From: Pristiophorus japonicus
Taxonomy: Eukaryota
Assembly (NCBI RefSeq): GCF_044704955.1
Contig: NC_091997.1
Span: forward strand, 67,022,001-67,086,000
Direction: 5' to 3'
DNA length: 64,000 bases
Shown: piece after piece, positions 4,420-53,087 of the stretch
How the letters are laid out: every line of letters starts with the position of its first letter
Position numbering within the stretch: the stretch's first letter is position 1
The notes under the pieces: generated by a model
What the model was told of the DNA's origin: nothing
Seen by the model: the letters and a program-made list of their open reading frames with translations, nothing else
Databases searched by the model: none
Program-made: the position numbers and the translations under genes

Positions 4420-4680
4420 TACAATATATGCTCACAGGTTTGGAGAGCTGTTGAGTTGGGAGTGGCTTAGCCAGTCACGTGATGTTCACAAGACTCAATA
4501 AAACCCCAGCCAGTTGGGTTCGGGGGATCCACGATGAGGCAGGTGGTTGTGAGCCTGGTAGATGAACTGGTAATGTGTCGTGTGATTGTTAAACCTTTTG
4601 CTAATAAACCAACTAGTTCTTAATAGCAATGTGTTGCTATGAATTCTTAAGCAAAGAATCCATGAAGCAAATATATTACA
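4420..4680 (+). mobile_element. Solo-LTR-like element (275-bp family) with perfect 5-bp TSD AAACC
   Basis: AAACC at 4415-4419 and 4681-4685; ends ATTACA; internal AATAAA; homologous to copies at 8034, 19398, 22012 and 52813. Confidence 0.75.
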
Positions 4681-4972
4681 AAACCCAATCCTGCTCTCGC
4701 CCAACCTCCACAGGGACACTTTACAGCAGGGGTCAGTGGATAGTAATCAGGAGCGGGAACCCTGGCTGACTTTTTTTTTTTTAAACCCCTCCTCTTCTTC
4801 AGCCCAGTAGCATCGAGTCAGATTGTAGTGGCTTTGACTAGAGATCAGCTGACCCTACACAGGACCAGGGATTGAACCCGGTGACTTTCCGAGCCTGGCA
4901 TGGCAGGGTAGCATGCTGGGCGCTGTGGTGACTTACTGAGGGATCGGGAAAACTCTGAACACTGCGCCCTAC

Positions 4973-8033: not shown

Positions 8034-8286
8034 ATGCTCACAGGTTTGTAGAGCTGTTGAGTTGGGAGCGGCTTAGCTAGTCACGTGATGTTCACAAGAC
8101 TCAATAAAACCCCGGCCAGTTGGGTTCGTGGAATCCACGATGAGGCAGGTGGTTGTGAGTCTGGTGGATGAACTGGTAATGTGTAGTGTGATTGTTAAAC
8201 CTTTTGCTTATAAACCAACTGGTTCTTAATAGCAATGTGTTGCAATGAATTCTTAAGCAAAGAACCCTTGAAGCAAACACATCACA
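8034..8286 (+). mobile_element. Solo-LTR-like element copy abutting the TUBGCP4 exon 7 donor
   Basis: Homologous to 4420-4680; the terminus ACATCACA ends 5 nt from the exon boundary. Confidence 0.75.
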
Positions 8287-14912: not shown

Positions 14913-15200
14913 CTGGGAACAGGAATGAACTGTTAGTCGCACAGGAAGAGAGATCAATATTGTACCAGAACACCTTGGCTCAGTGTGCCCAGACTGATGT
15001 GGTTAAGAGCTCCTCTCCACATTATTTGCAAGAGTCACAGAAGAAATAAGACTGGGTAGTCAAACCCAGTTCCTTATAGTGTAATTCCACAATGCAGGGG
15101 AATGGCAGCATAGTGGTTATGTTATTAGTAATCCAGACTGCTCCATTTTTGATCGGGGCAGAGGAGCAGTGAGAGGTCGGGGCCCAGTAGCATCGTGATC

Positions 15201-15830
15201 AGGGCCCAGGAGAGGCGAGGGTTCGGGGCCCAGGAGAGGCGAGGGTTCGGGGCCCAGGAGAGGCGAGGGTTCGGGGCCCAGGAGAGGCGAGGGTTCGGGG
15301 CCCAGGAGAGGCGAGGGGCCGGGGCCCAGGAGAGGCGAGGGTTCGGGGCCCAGGAGAGGCGAGGGTTCGGGGCCCAGGAGAGGCGAGGGGCCGGGGCCCA
15401 GGAGAGGCGAGGGGCCGGGGCCCAGGAGAGGCGAGGGGCCGGGGCCCAGGAGAGGCGAGGGGCCGGGGCCCAGGAGAGGCGAGGGGCCGGGGGCCCAGGA
15501 GAGGCGAGGGGCCGGGGGCCCAGGAGAGGCGAGGGGCCGGGGGCCCAGGAGAGGCGAGGGGCCGGGGGCCCAGGAGAGGCGAGGGGCCGGGGGCCCAGGA
15601 GAGGCGAGGGGCCGGGGGCCCAGGAGAGGCGAGGGGCCGGGGGCCCAGGAGAGGCGAGGGGCCGGGGGCCCAGGAGAGGCGAGGGGCCAGGGGCCCAGGA
15701 GAGGCGAGGGGCCCAGGAGAGGCGAGGGGCCAGGGGCCCAGGAGAGGCGAGGGGCCAGGGGCCCAGGAGAGGCGAGGGGCCAGGGGCCCAGGAGAGGCGA
15801 GGGGCCAGGGGCCCAGGAGAGGCGAGGGGC
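15201..15830. repeat. G-rich minisatellite, 24-25 bp unit (GGCCCAGGAGAGGCGAGGGKYCGG), about 26 copies
   Basis: Directly visible tandem array. Confidence 0.95.
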
Positions 15831-19269: not shown

Positions 19270-19397
19270 CTGAAACACATGAGTCGCAGCGTGAGAGAAG
19301 TCAATGCAAGATTAGACTGGATGAAGGAAAATGGGATAAAGGGAATATGGGAACAGGGTGGGTAAATGTGATTGGAACTATTTACTTTTGTGGAGGG

Positions 19398-20374
19398 CAT
19401 TATGCATTTGCTTCATGGGTTCTTTGCTTAAGAATTCATAGCAACACATTACTGTTAAGAACTAGTTGGTTTATTAGCAAAAGGTTTAACAATCACACTA
19501 CACATTACCAGTTCATCCACCAGGCTCACAACCACCTGCCTCATCGTGGATCCCCTGAACCCAACTGGCTGGGGTTTTATTGAGTCTTGTGAACATCATG
19601 TGACTGGCTAAGCCACTCACAATGCAACAGCTCTACAACTATTTTAGTTGATCTGTAAATCAAATGCCTCCTTATTAAAGCGGCACACAAACTGACAAAT
19701 AAACAAATTAACATTTGCCCATCAACTTAAATCAAATTAAAATGCACTCCAGTCCCTCTGGTGCCCACCTCTCGCGGAAGGCCGCGAGCGTACCGGTGGA
19801 CACCGCGTGCTCCATCTCCAGGGACACCCTGGCTCGGATGTAAACGCGGAAGAGAGACAGGCAGTCGGGCTGAATGACCCACTCGACCGCCCGCTGCCTG
19901 GACCGGCTGATGGCCCCCTTGGCCGTGCCCGGGAGCAGTCCTACGAGGAGGCCTTCCGACCTGCCCGCTCTCCTCCGCACAGGGTGCCCAAAGATCAGGA
20001 GTGTGGGACTGAAGTGCAACCAGAATTTGAGGAGCAGCCCCTTCAAATAATGGAACAGGAGCTGCAACCTCACACACTCAATAAAAACATGGAACACGGA
20101 CTCTTCCAGACCGCAGAAATTATAGGCAGCCTGGGAGCCCGTGAACCGACTTAAAAACTTATTGCTCTGTGCAACACCCTCCAGGCCAAGTCCCCAATAA
20201 ATAGTGGGAGGACTCCCATGTAGAGTGCACTCCATTGGGGACCCCCGTCTCCTCCGGATAGCAAGATGGTGTGCCATGGCGTGTCCGGACGGCAGACGAG
20301 GATGGCAAGGTGGAGAGTGTGCAGGAGCAGCCCGTACAAAACCTGTGAGCATACTCACAGGTGCATACATTACA
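19398..20374 (-). mobile_element. Solo-LTR-like element (TSD GAGGG) interrupted by a Tx1/L1-clade LINE 3' fragment (about 19639-20340)
   Basis: GAGGG at 19393-19397 and 20375-20379. The insert encodes an ORF2 C-terminal zinc-finger-like region (FCGLEESVFHVFIEC...FRERWAP). Confidence 0.8.
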
Positions 20375-22011
20375 GAGGGGAAAAGCCAACTTAGGCTATA
20401 TTGAAACAACGGCATTTTCAATAACCACAAACGTTTCTGTCTCTATTACCACGTTTAGTAGATTATTCCGACAGAAAGACAGAGTGATGAAGATGAATAG
20501 TTTTTTTTTTTAATTGCGCATATGGAAATAAAGGCAAATGGGCTTCTGGGGGCATTGAACATAAAAGCAAAGAAGTGATGTTGAATTTGTGCCAAGATAT
20601 CAGATAGGCTATTGATGGGAATATGGTGGCAAGTTCAGGGCATATAGGAAGGGTGTTAAGAGTCTTGGAAAAGGGTACAGTGAAGAACGATACCACATAT
20701 GAGTGGGTTGTCCCATGAGAAGAGATTGAGCCTACACTCTCTGGAGTTTAGAAGAATGAGGTGATCTCATTGAAACAAGTAAGATTCTGAGGGGGATTGA
20801 CAGGGTAGATGCTGAGAGGTCAGAGTGTCTAGAATCAGGGGTCACACAGTCTCAGGATAAAGCGAAGGCCATTTAAGGCTGAGATGAGGAGAAATTTCTT
20901 CACTCAGAGGGTTGTGAATCTTTGGAATTCTCTGCCCCAGCTGTGGAGGCAGAGTCTCTGAATATATTCAAGACTGAGATCGATAGATTTTTGGACTCTA
21001 CGGAATCAAGGGATATGGGGATCGAGCGGGAAAGTGGAGTTGAGGTCGAAGATCAGCCATGATCTCATTGAATGGCGGAGCAGGCTCGAGTGGCCGAATG
21101 GCCGACTCCTGCTCCCAATTCCTAGGTGAGGCTCGAGTGGAGTATAAACGCCGGCATGGACTGGTTGGGCCGAATGGCCTGTTTCTGTGCCGTATATCCT
21201 GCGTAATTCTATGTTTTCGTTATGAAGTAAAGCTTGAAATATTGGAGGATTTATTTACTGGAAGAGAAAAGATTAAAGATTAAAAGGAGGATCAGATAAA
21301 GCTTTTCAAAATTATGAAAGGCTTTTAGAGGATAAATAGTGACGGGTTATTTATATCGCTATTGGGGGCGGGGGGAGCGATGGATGGTCTCAGTATCATC
21401 ACTGGAATAATGAAGTCGGAACTTAGAAGAAATGTTTTCACAGAGGTTTATTAGAGCAAAGAATGTTTTACCACAAGTGACTACTGATGCATACATACAA
21501 CATCATTTAAATAGAAATTGGGTAAGAATTTGAAAAGGATATGAGTTGGATATGGGGAAGGGGATTAGAATAGACAGCTCCAATTAAATAATTACTGCCA
21601 GCATTGGAATGAAGGCTTTTTTCAGTGCTTAAATTCTATGATTCTGAGGCACAAACTTCAAACTTTTAGTTTTAATTTTGCATTTAATAATAATTCTGTT
21701 TAAAAAAGAAAGCCCATCCCAGCTGGCCTGATGATTCAGTCAGCCAGAGTAATTCATCTATCCCGATCGTGAGAGCCCCTGATCGAACCACAGTCAGCCT
21801 GAATCGGCAGATCTCATCTTGTGCCCCAGTTCAGGGCCTACAATCTGTCCCGTGCCCCCCACCCCTGACCCCCTTCCAGGTTTAGGGAGGGGGGGGGACT
21901 CTGCCGGGGCTCCTGCTCCCGATCTATTTCAAGAGATCCCAGTCGGAGAATAGTGGACCTCGGGAACAGGCTGCGGTCCCGTGCAGTGGAAGCCGATTTG
22001 TTGAATCCCTT

Positions 22012-22763
22012 TGTAATGCATTTGCTTCATGGGTTCTTTGCTTAAGAATTCAAAGCTATTAAGAACTAATTGGTTTATTAACAAAGGTTTAACAATCACA
22101 CTGCACATTACCAGTTCATCCACCAGGCTCACAACTGCATACCTCATCGTGGATCCCCCAAACCCAACTGGCCGGGGTTTTATTGAGTCTTGTGACCATC
22201 ATGCGACTGGCTAAACCACTCACCATGCAACAGCTCTACAACTATTTTGTTGAACCTATAAACCAAGTGCCCCCTTATTAAAAAGGGCATTAAAACCGAC
22301 AAATTAAACTTTTAACTTTAAACGGTCAAATTAAAATTTGGTTGCCGGGGGTGATGATGCACTCCAGTCCCTCCGGCGCCCACCTCTCGTGGAAGGCCGC
22401 GAGCGTACCGGTGGACACCGCGTGCTCCATCTCCAGGGACATTCTGGCTCGAATGTAGCTGTGGAAGAGAGGCAGGCAGTCGGGTTGAATGACCCCCTTG
22501 ACCGCCCGCTGCCTGGGCCAGTTAATGGTCACCTTGGCCATGCCCAGGAGCAGTCCTACGAGGAGGCCTTCTGACCTGCCCGCTCCCCTCCGCGCAGGGT
22601 GCCCACAGATCAGGAGTGTGGGACTGAAATGCAGCCCAGAATTTGAGGAGCAGCCCTTTCAAATATTGGAACAGGGGCTGCAACCTGACATAAACATGGA
22701 ACACGGACTCTTCCAGACCGCAGAAATTACAGGTGGCGCATACTCATAGGTGTGGATATTACA
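22012..22763 (-). mobile_element. Solo-LTR-like element (TSD CCCTT/TCCTT) interrupted by a Tx1/L1-clade LINE 3' fragment (about 22242-22737)
   Basis: TGTAATGCA...ATTACA termini; same 3' junction as the 19398 copy; shorter insert. Confidence 0.8.
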
Positions 22764-23300
22764 TCCTTCAAGCGAGAGCTGGACCTGTTTCTAGCTGGGG
22801 GGAGTGGGTGAAAATCACGTCATACACAAGGTAGGTACCGCAGGGAATTCAGGGCCAGAGTGATCGCCTGGACTAGTTTCCATCAGAGAGGTATTTCACA
22901 GATTTACCCCTCCCTCCAGGTTGGCCCGGTTTTTTAAAATCTGTTTTTTTCCCCGCCTCTACCAGGAGATCACATGGTTTTGGGTGGGGAGGGGAATGTG
23001 TATATTGTGATACACAGGGTATCACAACTGTGTGGGGCAGACTGGATGGACCATTGTTCGTGTTTGCACCAAGAGATCAGGTAAGAAAGGGAATGAGATT
23101 GATTATGATGCCTTCCACTGTTGCATATCCTGCTGACATTCACTATCTAAGCTCACACATGAAAAATGGACACTTAGGCAAGGTACCCGAGAGCTGCCCT
23201 TGTCAACGGTACCATACAAGTCAGAGCCTTCAGGAGAGGAGGAGAAAAATAGTAAGGACAAGAAAACCTCTCGGCTTAAGTTAGTAGCCACAGAACCTAC

Positions 23301-27265: not shown

Positions 27266-27450
27266 TAACATTTATGCATGAAACATTTAACAGTTTAGAT
27301 GTACATTGATAATTATTTTCTGGAGAAACTAAGATGATTTTGCACAGCGCTATTTCAACCAAGCACGAAGATAAAACAGATGATCTGGCCGTTATCACAT
27401 TGCTGTTTGTGGGAACTTGCTGTGCACAAAATTGGTTTCCTACATTACAA

Positions 27451-27763
27451 CTATCTTAAATGAAACGATGAAGCTGAGCGCCCCCTTTATTAAAGGGACA
27501 CTTAGAACCCGCAAATGAAACTTTAGACCTAGCAGCTCAAATTAGAATTTGGTTGCCGGGGGTTGACGATGCACTCCAGTCCCTCCGGCGCCCACCTCTC
27601 GCGGAAGGCCACGAGCGTACCGGTGGGCACCGCGTGCTCCATCTCCCGGGGACACGCCGGCTCGGACGTAACCGCGGTGGAGAGGCCGGGCAGTCGGGCT
27701 GAACGACCCCCCCCCCTTGACCGCCTGCCCGCGGCCTGGACCGGCTGATGGCCCCCTTGGCCA
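27451..27763 (-). mobile_element. Tx1/L1-clade LINE 3' fragment inserted in a SINE
   Basis: Homologous to the 19639 and 22242 inserts; SINE sequence on both sides (cctacattacaa ... ttcattggctgtgaagcgc). Confidence 0.75.
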
Positions 27764-27899
27764 GGGTTAGGGGTTAGGGGTTAGGGTTCATTGGCTGTGA
27801 AGCGCTTTTGGGGCGTCCTGAGGTGGTGAAAGGCGCTACAGAAATGCAAGTCTTTGCTGGTTATGTGGGTTGTTGGGGGGGGGGGCACCCACCAAGGCC

Positions 27900-28300: not shown

Positions 28301-29199
28301 CACAGTTGAACTATACACTGACTTAAGCTCCTCAACTATTATGAAATAATGAAAGTAGGTCCAGCAGACTTTATTTCTACCTTCTTTTATATATATATTA
28401 ACTTAAGCTCCTTAACTATGAGGAAGTAATGAATGTAGGTCTCACCATTGTAGGCTTGGCCCAATAACAACTATCTCCATTAATACTACATAGAATCTGC
28501 ACAGGAACAGACTGTTTCATCCAACTTATCAGGTGGACGTAAAAGATCCCATGGCACTATTTCGAAGACGAGCAGGGAGTTCTCCCCGGTGTCCTGGGGC
28601 CAATATTTATCCCTCAATCAACATAAAAACACAGATTATCTGGTCATTATCACATTGCTGTGTGTGGGAGCTTGCTGTGTGCAAATTGGCTGCCACGTTT
28701 CCCACATTACAACAGTGACTACATTCCAAAAGTACTTCATTGGCTGTAAAGCGCTTTGGGATGTCCGGTGGTCGTAAAAGATGCTATATAAATGCAAGAC
28801 CTTTTTTTCTTTTTATGCCAATGTTTATACTCCATGCAAGTCTCTTTGAACTTAATTGCCTCTTGTTACTCTGACCTGTATCCCTCCGTTCCCTTCGCTC
28901 TCATGTATGCAACATATCGCTTTAACATTTAAAAATCTCAAAACACCTTACAAAAGAAGAAAGAAAGACTTGCATTTCTATAGCACCTTTCGTGACCACC
29001 AGACATCCCAAAGCACAAAGCAGCCAATGAGGTACTTTTTGAAGTGTAGTCACTGTTATAATGTGGGATACACAGCAGCTAATTTGCGCACAGCAAGCTC
29101 CCACAAATAGCAATGTGATAATGACTAGATCATCTGTTTTGTTATGTTGATGGAGGGATAAATATTGGCCAGGACACTGGGGGTAACTCCCCTGCTGTT

Positions 29200-29935
29200 C
29201 CCTCAGTACTGCCCCTCCGACAGTGCGGCGCTCCCTCAGCACTGCCCCTCCGACAGTGCGGCGCTCCCTCAGTACTGCCCCTCCGACAGTGCGGCGCTCC
29301 CTCAGCACTGCCCCTCCGACAGTGCGGCGCTCCCTCAGCACTGCCCCTCCGACAGTGCGGCGCTCCCTCAGCACTGCCCCTCCAACAGTGCGGCGCTCCC
29401 TCAGCACTGCCCCTCCGACAGTGCGGCGCTCCCTCAGCACTGCCCCTCCGACAGTGCGGCGCTCCCTCAGCACTGCCCCTCCGACAGTGCGGCACTCCCT
29501 CAGCACTGCCCCTCCGACAGTGCGGCGCTCCCTCAGCACTGCCCCTCCGACAGTGCGGCACTCCCTCAGCACTGCCCCTCCGACAGTGCGGCACTCCCTC
29601 AGCACTGCCCCTCCGACAGTGCGGCGCTCCCTCAGCACTGCCCCTCCGACAGTGCGGCGCTCCCTCAGCACTGCCCCTCCGACAGTGCGGCACTCCCTCA
29701 GCACTGCCCCTCCGACAGTGCGGCACTCCCTCAGCACTGCCCCTCCGACAGTGCGGCGCTCCCTCAGCACTGCCCCTCCGACAGTGCGGCGCTCCCTCAG
29801 CACTGCCCCTCCGACAGTGCGGCGCTCCCTCAGCACTGCCCCTCCGACAGTGCGGCGCTCCCTCAGCACTGCCCCTCCGACAGTGCGGCGCTCCCTCAGC
29901 ACTGCCCCTCCGACAGGGCGGCGCTCCCTCAGCAC
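29200..29935. repeat. Minisatellite, 33-bp unit (CTGCCCCTCCGACAGTGCGGCGCTCCCTCAGCA), about 22 copies, inside a SINE spanning about 28960-30042
   Basis: Directly visible; 11-aa periodicity in the overlapping ORFs. Confidence 0.95.
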
Positions 29936-30142
29936 TGCACTGGAGTGTCAGCCTAGATTTTTGTGCTCCAGTCCCTGGGGTGGGACTTGAACCCACAACC
30001 TTCTGACTCAGAGGCGAAAGCACTGCCCACTGAACCACAGCTCAGGTGGGCAAAGGTGACAGAATGTGCCTGCAATTGTAGGACTTTTAATACACTAGAT
30101 AGTTAATATAACTAGGAGGGAGAACTGAACGTCATTATTTCG

Positions 30143-33985: not shown

Positions 33986-35589
33986 GTGGACGATTGGAAC
34001 GGTGGAATTTCTCCCTTCCCCCAACCGACTATCTCCTTTGCCCCGGGGTCAGGCTTGTTTTCAATATTTTCGACGATGTTGCTAGCTTAAGTTGGGAGCT
34101 CGCTGGGGAGTGGGGTGAGGGGGGGGGGTGTTGGGGGGGTGGGAGGGTGAGGGAGGGATTGGATATTGCTGCGGGATTCTAACACAGCAGCTCAACGTGC
34201 CGGGGATCCCAAACCTCCCAGGAACGAAAATGCCTCTGCTGAAGAATCGTCAAGAAATGTAGGTGGGAGCCTTCACCTGCTGCGTCGCCGTCCGTGTAGT
34301 GGCCTCCTGCAACCCTTTCAAATGCTTTCCCCCCACGTGACGTGTCACCCATTGACACTGGGCGCCCGTTGTATTCAGGGAGACATAACGTCTGGACTGG
34401 GCGAGGTGGGGAAAATGGGAGATGTGAGATCCCTTTGTGGTCGGTGCCTGACCTGAACAGCGCCGGTCCGTACCTGGGAGGCCATTGGGCGCAGGTGAGA
34501 CCGGAAAATCTCACGGAAGTAGAAATTGTCGAAGATTGAGTCGACTGGGCCCATTACTCGCTGGAGTTTAGAAGAATGAGAGGTGCTCTCATTGAAACAA
34601 GATTCTGAGGGGACTTGACAGGGTAGATGCAGGGAGGATGTTTCCCCCCGGGCTGGGGAGTCTAGAACCAGGGGTCACACAGTCTCAGGATAAGGGGTCG
34701 GCCATTTAGGACGGAGATGAGGAGAAATTTCTTCACTCAGAGGGTGGTGAACCTTTGGAATTCTCTGCCCCAGAGGGCTGTGGAGGCTCAGTCGCTGAGT
34801 ATATTCAAGGCTGAGATCGATAGATTTTTGGACTCGAGGGGAATCGAGGGATATGCGGATCGGGCGGGAAAGTGGAGTTGAGGTCGAAGATCAGCCGTGG
34901 TCTCACTGAATGGCGGAGCAGGCTCGAGGGGCCGAATGGCAACTCTTGCTCCTATGTCCCATGCTGCCTTTCAACTGCAGTGGTGAAACAGTGGGAAATT
35001 CTTGGCCCAATGCTGTTGCATCTCAAAAAATATTTTATACCGGGCTCTTACTCCCTTCAGAAGTGCAAGAAGGAGGCTTGGTAACCTAGCAACCGTATCC
35101 CACCTCAGATGGGTGCCTGTGCTGTGACTATACAAATTGAGTCAGGTGGCAATGACAACAACTTGTATTTATATAGCGCCTTTAACGTAGTAAAACGTCC
35201 CAGGGCGCTTCACAGGAGTGTCATAAAACAAAATTTGACACCGAGCCACATAAGGAGAAATTAGGGCAGGTGACCAAAAGCTTGGTCAAAGAGGTAGGTT
35301 TTAAGGAGCATGTTAAAAGAGGAGAGAGAGGTAGAGAGGCGGAGAGGTTTAGGGAGGGAGTTCCAGAGCTAGGGGCCCAGGCAGCTGAAGGCACGGCCAC
35401 CGATGGTGGAGCGATTATAATCAGGGATGCTCAAGAGGGCAGAATTAGAGGAGCGCAGACATCTCGGGGGGTTGTGGGGCTGGAGGAGATTACAGAGATA
35501 GGGAGGGGCGAGGGCCATGGAGGGGTTTGAAAACAAGGATGAGAATTTTGAAATCGAGGCGTTGCTTAACCGGGAGCCAATGTAGGTCA

Positions 35590-36757
35590 GCGAGCACAGG
35601 GGGTGTGATGGGTGAGCGGGACTCGGTATGAGTTAGGACATGGGGCAGCGAACACAGGGGGCGATGGGTGAGTGGGACTCGGTGCGAGTTAGAATACGGG
35701 GCACAGGGGGTGATGGGTGAGCGGGATTTGGTGCGAGTTAGGACATGGGGCAGCGAGCACAGGGGGTGATGGGTGAGCGGGACTTGGTGCGAGTTAGGAC
35801 ATGGGGCAGTGAGCACAGGGGGCGATGGGTGAGCGGGACTCGGTGCAAGTTAGGACATGGGGCAGTGAGCACAGGAGGTGATGGGTGAGCGGGACTCGGT
35901 GCGAGTTAGGACATGGGGCAATGAGCACAGGAGGTGATGGGTGAGCGGGACTCGGTGCGAGTTAGGACACGGGGCAGCGAGTACAGGGGGTGATGGGTGA
36001 GCGGGATTTGCTGTGAGTTAGGACACGGGGCAGCGAGCACAGGGGGTGATGGGTGAGCGGGACTCGGTGCGAGTTAGGACATGGGGCAGCGAACACAGGG
36101 GGTGATGGGTGAGCGGGACTCGGTGCGAGTTAGGACACGGGGCAGTGAGCACAGAGGGTGATGGGTGAGCGGGACTCGGTGCGAGTTAGGACATGGGGCA
36201 GTGAGCACAGAGGGTGATGGGTGAGCGGGACTCGGTGCGAGTTAGGACATGGGGCAGTGAGCACAGAGGGTGATGGGTGAGCGGGACTCGGTGCGAGTTA
36301 GGACATGGGGCAATGAGCACAGGAGGTGATGGGTGAGCGGGACTCGGTGCGAGTTAGGACACGGGGCAGCGAGTACAGGGGGTGATGGGTGAGCGGGATT
36401 TGCTGTGAGTTAGGACACGGGGCAGCGAGCACAGGGGGTGATGGGTGAGCGGGACTCGGTGCGAGTTAGGACATGGGGCAGCGAACACAGGGGGTGATGG
36501 GTGAGCGGGACTCGGTGCGAGTTAGGACATGGGGCAGTGAGCACAGAGGGTGATGGGTGAGCGGGACTCGGTGCGAGTTAGGACATGGGGCAGTGAGCAC
36601 AGAGGGTGATGGGTGAGCGGGACTCGGTGCGAGTTAGGACATGGGGCAGTGAGCACAGAGGGTGATGGGTGAGCGGGACTCGGTGCGAGTTAGGACATGG
36701 GGCAGTGAGCACAGGGGGTGATGGGTGAGCGGGACTTGGTGTGAGTTAGGACACGGT
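35590..36757. repeat. Minisatellite, about 56-bp unit, about 21 copies, inside an L2-like LINE fragment spanning about 35155-36880 (minus)
   Basis: Unit GAGCACAGGGGGTGATGGGTGAGCGGGACTCGGTGCGAGTTAGGACATGGGGCAGC; flanks translate to an L2-like RT C-terminus (LIHAFVTSRL...HWLPVKQRLDFKIL). Confidence 0.93.
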
Positions 36758-38823
36758 GCAGCCGAGTTTCGGATGATCTCAAGTTTACGTAGGGTAGAAT
36801 GTGGGAGGCCACTCAGGAGTGTGTTGGAATAGGCAAGCCTGGAGGTAACAAAGGCATGGATGAGGGCTTCAATCAGCAATGTACTCTATGTGAGAGGCAT
36901 ACAGAGTGAGTGGTAGTTACATAGAAGGGCAGGACGATAGAAGAAAAGGGAGAGAGGGGATGAGTGAGAAAAATAGTCACCGACAGGTAGCAGACTAGAC
37001 ACGAGAAAGGGTGTGAGAGCTGTATAGAAAGAGAGAGACAGAATGAATGGAAAGAAAAGAGGAGAGAAGGGGAAAACAAATTTTACCAAGTCGGAGAGAG
37101 AAGCAGAGAGAAAGTCCGAGAGACAATTTTGTTTTAATTTTGCCCGTGGAGAATGCCACAAGAGATCAACGAGTTTGCAGTGAAGAAGTAATTACATTCT
37201 GTCTTCAGGCAATTGGCCCTGGTATGAACATTCTCAGTCTTATTCTTTTGCATCTTTTTAAATGAGCTTCATCCTACGTTTTTCAAAGATACCATTCATG
37301 GGGAAAGTGCTTCCTCTGCAGGCTGTCTGTTAACCAGAAGATTTACACAGGCTGGTGAAATTGTGAACCATTTTCGCGATTATCCTATGCCCATCGTCAT
37401 CATCATAGGCGGTCCCTCGTATCGAGGATAACTTGCTTCCACGCCAAAAAGGGATGTGTTCACAGATGTTTCAATGAAGGACCTAATATTCGGATCCCGA
37501 ACTACATCCTGAAGGGTGGAAGATGCCTGTGGGTGGACTTTTTTAACGTGGGGTGGCCGTTGCACACCAGCCACCACACGGGGCTTGACAGAGCGAGGTC
37601 TTGGTCCAGTGGCAAGGGTTAACCAGGACGACTGGAGACCTGCTCTGCTGCACGGACCCAGTGCGCCCACATATCGCAGTGTGGGCTGGGCCCGTGCTGC
37701 CCCTGGGCCCTCGCCTCTCGCCTATCCTGAGCCCTGATCACATCACTCCATGATCAGTCGCCACTCCTTCGCCCCAACCCCAACATGTAGCTAGCAACCA
37801 CAACAGCTTGCATTTATATAGCGCCTTTAAAGTGGTAAAACGTCCCAAGGCGCTTCACAGGAGCGTTATCAAACAAAATTTGACACCGGACCACATAATG
37901 CGATATTAAGACTGATGACCAAAAGCTTGGTCAAAGAGGTAGTTTTTCAGAAGCGTCTTAAACGAGGAAAGGGAGGCGGCGGTATAGGGAGGAATTCTTG
38001 AGCATCCCTGATTATAATCGCTCCACCATCGGTGGCCGTGCCTTCTGTTGCCTGGGCCCCAAGCTCTGGAACTCCCTCCCTAAACCTCTCTGCCTCGCTA
38101 CCTCTCTTTCCTCCTTGACGATGCTCCTTAAAACCTACCTCTTTGACCAAGCTTTTGGTCACCTGCCCTAATTTCTTCTCATGTGACTCAGTGTCAATTT
38201 TTTTTTCCTTGCAACACTGCTGTGAAGCGCCTTGAGACATTAAAGGCGCTATATAAATACAAGTTGTTGCTACTTTCAGTTGGGAATTTCTACTTTTATC
38301 TTTCTTTGTCCCTTTCCATAACTACTTTAAACCTAGTTATATTATGATCGCTATTACCGCGATGTCCTCACACACTCCACTTGACCTGCTTCATTCCTCA
38401 TTGGGCTAGAAACATACTGATTAAGAAAGTTCTCCTGCACACATTTTAGGAATTCAGCACCCTCCTGCCCCTTTACACTGTGTCCCCCAGTCTGTATTAG
38501 GGAGATCGAAGTCCCCTACTATTACTGATCCATTATATAAATACAACTCATTGTTGTTGAGCTACTGTGAAACTTCCCGATACATCTCGCGAATTTCACT
38601 TCAAAATATTGAGTACGAAGAGCTCATTTTATATTACCAGGAAGCGCCAAAAGATATAATTTTCCTTGAAAGGGTACAAGTGCTGCATCTTTGATGAGTT
38701 CTGTGGGCTAGAGATTTGTCTCGGGCGGTGGGGCTGAGCGGGCAGTATTGGTTCATAGAAACATAGAAAATAGGAGCAGGAGTCTGCCATTCGGCCCTTC
38801 GAATCTGCACCGCCATTCAATGT

Positions 38824-52812: not shown

Positions 52813-53087
52813 TGTAATGTATGCACCCATGAGTATGCTCACAGGTTTGTAGAGCTGTTAAGGTGGGAGGGGCTTAGCCAGTCACATGATGTTCACAAGA
52901 CTCAATAAAACCCCAGCCAGTTGGGTTCGGGGGATCCACGATGAGGCAGGTGGTTGTGAGCCTGGTGGATGAACTGGTAATGTGTAGTGTGATTGTTAAA
53001 CCTTTTGCTAATAAACCAACTAGTTCTTAATAGCAATGTATTGCTATGGATTCTTAAGCAAAGAACCCATGAAGCAAATACATTGCA
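52813..53087 (+). mobile_element. Full-length solo-LTR-like element copy with an empty target site
   Basis: Begins TGTAATGTAT, ends ATACATTGCA (near-perfect terminal inverted repeat); uninterrupted caggtttgtagagctg; no clear TSD. Confidence 0.75.

Follow-up and report, generated by a model that had tools for sequence, protein, structure and literature searches.

A probable two-part target, an E-box-like word and a nick word, for a Tx1L-lineage LINE that inserts into Gypsy-type long terminal repeats of a shark

The DNA analysed here, referred to as the window, is a stretch of 64,000 nucleotides from the shark Pristiophorus japonicus (NC_091997.1, positions 67,022,001 to 67,086,000), in which a repeat identified from its sequence as the solo long terminal repeat (LTR) of a decayed Gypsy-type retrotransposon occurs five times. 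Two of these host copies are filled, being split at the same nucleotide by the 3′ ends of a long interspersed nuclear element (LINE) of the Tx1 clade, and these filled copies are independent insertions. The LINE inserts independently into such LTRs and, with a probability that we put at roughly 0.78, selects its sites by two parts: an E-box of the type CA(G/C)(C/G)TG about 24 bases upstream and TGTA at the nick. The target is thus not the host repeat as such, and the E-box-like word is likely the real homing signal.

Host repeats and Tx1 inserts in the window

The features are as follows (ORF, open reading frame; UTR, untranslated region; SINE, short interspersed nuclear element).

19398..20374, minus strand: filled host 1, a Gypsy-type solo LTR (TG...CA) split by the LINE, with GAGGG at 19393-19397 and 20375-20379
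19638..20339, minus strand: insert of host 1, a 5′-truncated Tx1 LINE with the last ~200 amino acids of ORF2 and a short 3′ UTR of the old type, ending in AAAATAGT
20358..20363, minus strand: E-box-like word CACCTG of host 1, 24 to 19 bases upstream of the nick
19625..19637, minus strand: nick-site word TGTAGAGCTGTTG of host 1, a word that most genomic insertions duplicate and host 1 does not
22012..22763, minus strand: filled host 2, a solo LTR flanked by CCCTT (22007-22011) and TCCTT (22764-22768)
22241..22737, minus strand: insert of host 2, a 5′-truncated Tx1 LINE whose 3′ UTR and 5′ end are unlike those of the host 1 insert, with one frameshift
4427..4682, plus strand: empty host lacking its first ~21 bases and so without an E-box word; one change in the nick word
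8034..8286, plus strand: empty host lacking its first ~22 bases and so without an E-box word
52813..53087, plus strand: empty host, a complete LTR, with the E-box word broken (CACCCA at 52824-52829)
27450..27763, minus strand: third Tx1 3′ fragment, off-target, inside a SINE-like repeat and again before TGTA

The original prediction, made from the sequence alone, had described five host copies, two of them split at one nucleotide by same-family LINE 3′ ends in one orientation, with differing flanks (GAGGG on both sides of the one, CCCTT and TCCTT around the other) and with inserts unlike in length and 3′ UTR. All of this is seen, both inserts being joined at host nucleotides 35/36; the three copies described as empty are also present, although those placed at 4420 and 8034 are incomplete, their first ~21 bases being gone. 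The usual target duplication of 13-14 bp is absent from both window inserts (copy 1 keeps a few bases at most), and host 2 lacks nine host bases at the 5′ junction; its upstream word now reads CACCTA (22747-22752). The third fragment had gone unmentioned; over 27450-27785, about three telomere-like TAACCC units stand at its 5′ junction and target bases are lost. The surrounding SINE-like repeat presumably resembles shark HE1.

The host repeat is assigned to a Gypsy-type retrotransposon because it has TG...CA ends, 5-bp duplications (30 of 48 complete hosts, with 28 different words), a recurring purine tract ahead of some copies, and paired LTRs that flank an interior opening, after a three-base spacing, with a common primer-site-like word; this decayed interior encodes, in L452, RVT_1 (E 4e-10) and then rve (E 2e-4), which is the reverse transcriptase-then-integrase order. 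The primer site is one that we take to belong to tRNA-Ser. An alternative guess for that site, one base followed by TGG, gave only solo copies in 20 of 151 matches. A non-autonomous DNA transposon had been considered as the host and was dropped once the interior was known. Nesting can reach three levels: in L170 the host LTR holds a Tx1 copy, and this in turn holds, at L170:2373-6968, another kind of Gypsy-type element with its two LTRs.

The insert, by sequence comparison, is a LINE of the Tx1L lineage, so that the Tx1 assignment of the original prediction stands. Its ORF2 is 49% identical along the full length to Xenopus Tx1L ORF2 (YTX2_XENLA, the only named protein matched) and 35-38% identical to teleost relatives, and contains Exo_endo_phos, RVT_1 and zf-RVT, that is, an N-terminal apurinic endonuclease-like (APE) domain, a reverse transcriptase (RT) and a C-terminal CCHC motif. 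It is preceded by a 697-amino acid ORF1 with 866 relatives at E<=1e-10, in which zf-CCHC is found below the curated cut-off (E 0.004). A Pfam search of the window ORF2 tail gave no match; the host 1 insert is 44% identical to the Xenopus Tx1L ORF2 C-terminus (E 1e-26) and 89% identical to L152, an intact copy of a sister subfamily (ORF1 697 amino acids, ORF2 1298 amino acids). Genome-wide counts here and below are exact sequence matches over the 5.9-Gb genome, whose repeats find their nearest named matches in sharks and rays. Matches of this kind to one motif at the end of ORF2 number 28,179, and the full-length copy that had been called for, with APE endonuclease and RT, was recovered: copies of 7.1-7.2 kb in the LTR site are represented by 89 exact 5′ junctions, and 20 stretches were inspected. 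The heads of the full-length copies L152 and L168 gave no Rfam match, to small nuclear RNA (snRNA) or other families. Within-class identity is 88% for the short-tail class seen in the window, 92% for the long-tail LTR-targeting class and 99% for a subfamily that targets a CR1-like LINE; a weakly supported tree places the CR1-targeting subfamily with the long-tail class.

Independent insertion at one site of the LTR

The filled 3′ junction occurs in 6,830 exact copies in the genome, and its reversed control in none. The upstream host junction was seen at 30 sites, of which 17 are 5′ junctions with duplicated TGTAGAGCTGTTG and 13 are empty, and the right arm of the host is filled in 75 of the first 100 cases listed (hand count). 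Among the first 100 tails listed of the LTR-targeting types (type A; the CR1-targeting subfamily is type B), 79 adjoin the LTR word, 21 adjoin other DNA and none the CR1 word (hand count); a scripted count gave 26 of the first 30 listed at the LTR word. The off-target share is nearer 27% than 21%, since off-targets that have A at +13 are missed by the tail pattern. Random flanks, which would have spoken against targeting, are therefore not what is seen: PMC4494074 calls a LINE target-specific when one sequence type makes up over 20% of its flanks, and the shares among the matches listed are 79 of 100 for LTR-targeting and 91 of 100 for CR1-targeting tails.

That both window copies have their junction base and orientation in common, and that some filled loci are segmental duplicates, would also be expected had a single ancestral insertion been amplified as a composite of LTR and LINE and later deleted to varied extents, the alternative raised in the original prediction. 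This history is rejected. Every insertion has its own target duplication, typically of 13-14 bp, and its own 5′ end (32 distinct start points among the 39 mapped of 97 5′ junctions), the inserts come from subfamilies of unlike age, and the paired LTRs of one Gypsy-type element differ in their insert or have none (L445, L443). Filled arms of the host have diverged as far as empty ones (87%), and a tree of 49 filled and 21 empty arms requires 19 changes of state; a filled-only clade, the pattern that would have pointed to a composite, is rejected by the approximately unbiased (AU) test (p 0.0003). The window copies are accordingly independent insertions of a Tx1L-lineage LINE into Gypsy-type solo LTRs.

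A distant E-box-like word and its possible reader

The proposal that the LINE targets the host repeat held as far as independent insertion at a fixed site is concerned, but ~21-27% of copies lie elsewhere, and what these have in common with the LTR site is an E-box-like word and a nick word. The LTR host and the CR1 host both carry CACCTG at −24..−19, with 18 bases between word and cut. For type A, 93 off-target loci were fetched, of which 70 have a duplication (mostly 13-15 bp, starting with TG); six were dropped (LTR-like upstream sequence, one stack-internal, one doubtful), and the remaining 64 reduce to 55 independent sites. A CANNTG starts at −25..−23 in 27 of these 55, compared with 323 of 16,943 control sites (1.9%; p 8e-32), and elsewhere there are at most two CANNTG per non-overlapping three-base window. 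All 27 words are CAGCTG, CACCTG, CAGGTG, CATCTG or CAGATG, which make up 37% of background E-boxes. For type B, 70 loci gave 52 sites, 40 of them independent, and the upstream word is found in 26 of the 40. The nick word is TGTA for type A and TTCA for type B, just 3-4 nick bases being common to off-target sites; the spacing from word to nick is rigid to ±1 base. Asymmetric words occur in both orientations (CACCTG 14, CAGGTG 8).

Occupancy of the hosts points the same way. Among LTR hosts, 42 of 50 filled and 25 of 47 empty copies carry an intact word (p 0.002; hand count, three unclear rows omitted); none of the three empty hosts of the window does. At the CR1 site, where CACCTG and TACCTG alleles code for the same valine, the ratio of non-empty to empty sites is 1,642/22,337 with CACCTG and 197/8,243 with TACCTG, a 3.1-fold difference.

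Several observations weigh against the two-part rule. A smaller, overlapping LTR sample shows no difference (10 of 17 filled and 6 of 13 empty hosts with the word). The CR1 alleles mostly mark CR1 subfamilies of unlike age, which confounds the allele comparison, and about half of the listed TACCTG rows counted as non-empty look like mutated empty sites. The exact word is absent from 28 of 55 type A and 14 of 40 type B off-targets and so is not required; it is broken in 8 of 50 filled LTRs and in window copy 2, and decay after insertion can explain only part of this. A recurring self-insertion site in the 5′ UTR of the LINE has no E-box. The off-target samples were drawn from contigs C1-C2, and the type B p-value reuses the type A control rate. 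For the closest known relative, Xenopus Tx1L, the endonuclease shows specificity when isolated (PMC1950540), which favours specificity encoded by the element.

Two further sets of sites were noted. The LINE has repeatedly inserted into itself near its base 909, immediately ahead of ORF1, and is joined there seamlessly at the 5′ end (L201, L203, L210, L213). Secondary hot spots lie in other repeats (10 sites in the L347 family, five in the L263 family and three in the L376 family), CAGCTG standing at −24 in the L347 and L263 families and not in the L376 family.

With respect to mechanism, a protein on the E-box would hold the endonuclease two helical turns (21 bp) away, and the LTR would be favoured only because both parts stand at the right spacing in thousands of its copies. 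What reads the word may be a host protein, a protein of the element, or neither. Judged from the words used, we give about an even chance to a host dimer of the class I/II basic helix-loop-helix (bHLH) type: use of both word orientations is expected of a dimeric binder, the preference at the centre of the word matches class I/II bHLH dimers, and the genome contains genes of this class. On contig C18 at 26.43 Mb, two neighbouring exons for an E-protein bHLH lie ~3 kb apart (L483, L484), a pair that we take to be like the alternative E47/E12 exons of TCF3.

It is somewhat less probable, though still a serious contender, that the element reads the word itself, the thumb, wrist or C-terminal surface of the ORF2 protein or the ORF1 protein contacting it with no host factor. 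The rigidity of the spacing to ±1 base speaks for direct reading, as do two precedents in the accessible text of their sources, namely human L1, whose thumb, wrist and C-terminal domain anchor the second-primer DNA (PMC7617806), and R2Bm, which uses a motif at −34..−22 together with the nick site (PMC10499050). ORF1 moreover ends in a conserved, basic domain of 4-5 helices with 93 relatives (L152:4304-4594, amino acids ~600-697), modelled confidently as helical (predicted local distance difference test score, pLDDT, 81). This domain, however, belongs to no Pfam family, does not resemble a bHLH and matches no fold clearly (best Z 7.5), and beyond the endonuclease and the CCHC fingers no DNA-binding module is recognised in the element; use of the word in both orientations and its bHLH-like centre would also fit a dimer better. 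Word and Atlas searches with the ORF1 domain gave no matches; the domain is a candidate adapter.

Causes of the E-box effect other than a host or an element protein are improbable, and about as improbable is the classical APE model followed by the original prediction, in which the endonuclease alone targets the LTR sequence. Roughly three quarters of type A tails do adjoin the LTR word, and the Tx1L endonuclease, in the available text of PMC1950540, nicks its own target unaided; yet the off-targets, with their 3-4 nick bases in common, also have the distant E-box, and the shark hairpin is three residues shorter than that of Tx1L and is unchanged across subfamilies with different targets. The fullest form of the bHLH proposal is more tentative than the identity of the reader: a vertebrate LINE would piggyback on an E-protein-type bHLH dimer and nick two helical turns away, repeats with suitably spaced E-boxes would act as sinks, and the present target would have arisen in a CR1 subfamily through the synonymous replacement of GTA by GTG. 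If the bHLH reading is true, target switching needs just a few changes at the nick.

Change of target, stacked copies and known systems

The younger sister subfamily keeps the E-box and the spacing and changes both the nick word, from TGTA to TTCA, and the host repeat. It inserts antisense at TTCATGCACAAGGA in a LINE that we label CR1-like from bird, turtle and shark RT relatives and general knowledge, with 15,937 exact junctions; the count of tails at the CR1 word given above (91 of 100 listed) was made by hand. At the 5′ end of this subfamily stands sequence similar to the old LTR duplication followed by the older 5′ end, a likely trace of which way the switch went. In four of 52 type B sites, T is the first duplicated base on the 3′ side but not on the other; since this T comes from the element, the type B nick can be placed only to within one base.

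There are 29 fixed differences between LTR-targeting and CR1-targeting ORF2. The endonuclease has six of them, four being fixed in every CR1-targeting copy, and the hairpin has none; 13 of the 29 cluster at amino acids 855-1063 (p 0.0003). The changes E15G and N21D were considered as the cause of the switch and ruled out, since the CR1-inserted copies L155-L156 hold the older residues. The altered nick word might instead originate in the RNA, read-through into a donor flank giving 3′ bases that pick matching primers. With so few endonuclease residues fixed and the hairpin unchanged, and with RNA giving at least the one base in the four sites just described, such an origin has something to recommend it; we nevertheless regard it as unlikely, since positions +2..+4 show no templated correction in the 52 sites, three fixed changes would fall, by alignment, in loops near catalytic motifs, and the ORF2 differences are clustered as stated.

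Insertions at the CR1 site are often 7.2-kb tandem arrays. Up to nine young 7.2-kb copies stand head to tail at one CR1-like site (L152-L165; for example, contig C1 9.71-9.77 Mb), and several copies in these arrays have intact ORF1 and ORF2. In mixed stack pairs the younger tail type lies upstream of the older in 11 of 11 cases, so that stacks grow on the E-box side. A common 5′ start with different tails is seen in 16 of 29 mapped stack neighbours, which suggests that new cDNA is often joined by pairing with the first bases of the resident copy. The stacks thus form a genomic record of 5′-end joining, in which newcomers reuse a resident 5′ end.

Comparison with known elements is made from the available text of the sources cited. 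Xenopus Tx1L, which inserts in the transposon Tx1D (PMC4494074), likewise has two ORFs, an APE endonuclease, RT and CCHC, and another transposon as its target (PMC4494074, PMC1950540); the shark LINE differs in targeting a Gypsy-type LTR and then a CR1-like LINE, in its hairpin loop (three residues shorter), and in a nick specificity of just 3-4 bases combined with a common distant E-box. A preference for LTR retrotransposons is described for the crocodilian Tx1-8_Crp and Tx1-4_AMi (Kojima 2015, PMC4494074), and Tx1-Mar targets a Mariner. Like these and Tx1-9_AMi, which occupy fixed positions in LTR retrotransposons or DNA transposons and form tandem insertions around the target duplication (PMC4494074), the shark LINE uses a fixed site. 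For the crocodilian elements, unlike the shark LINE, the article text reports no upstream motif and gives two preferred regions without recognisable similarity, and its supplementary flanks may bear on motifs (PMC4494074). The heads of L152 and L168 carry no snRNA, unlike some crocodilian Tx1-Mar.

An upstream motif ~22-34 bases off the nick, a fixed spacing with one-base tolerance and a short nick word are features shared with the RUM/RASIN system of R2Bm (PMC10499050). R2, however, is an element of the restriction-like endonuclease (RLE) type with an N-terminal zinc finger and Myb domain (PMC10499050), and the shark LINE is of the APE type without them. In contrast to R2Bm, other non-LTR elements are described there as having the endonuclease as sole target determinant. 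Integration of a non-LTR element at a set distance from the site of a host transcription factor has a parallel in Dictyostelium TRE5-A, at ~47 bp (PMC5391098, PMC3159450), and the fixed distance that characterises such tethered elements is found here, with the E-box word at −25..−23 and a hypothetical binder. The two differ in that TRE5-A uses RNA polymerase III factors at tRNA genes (PMC5391098), and the shark LINE has an E-box, a tighter spacing and only hypothetical tethering to a host factor.

The preference of Tx1 for LTR elements was thus already known from crocodilians, and the two-part rule is apparently undescribed: searches of open-access literature listings yielded no two-part target for an APE-type LINE, no upstream motif for Tx1 and no report of this shark family. 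Tens of thousands of insertions point to a second, distant determinant, against the general view that the endonuclease alone determines the targets of APE-type LINEs (PMC10499050), and this determinant is the same in subfamilies that are ~94% identical and have come to differ in nick word and host repeat. Because intact, 99%-identical copies exist, the question of how site-specific LINEs change target is directly testable. A target rule made of separate modules also has relevance to RNA-guided gene-insertion tools.

The window also contains tandem repeat arrays at 15153-15830, 29199-29938 (period ~66 bp) and 35585-36767 (~56 bp).

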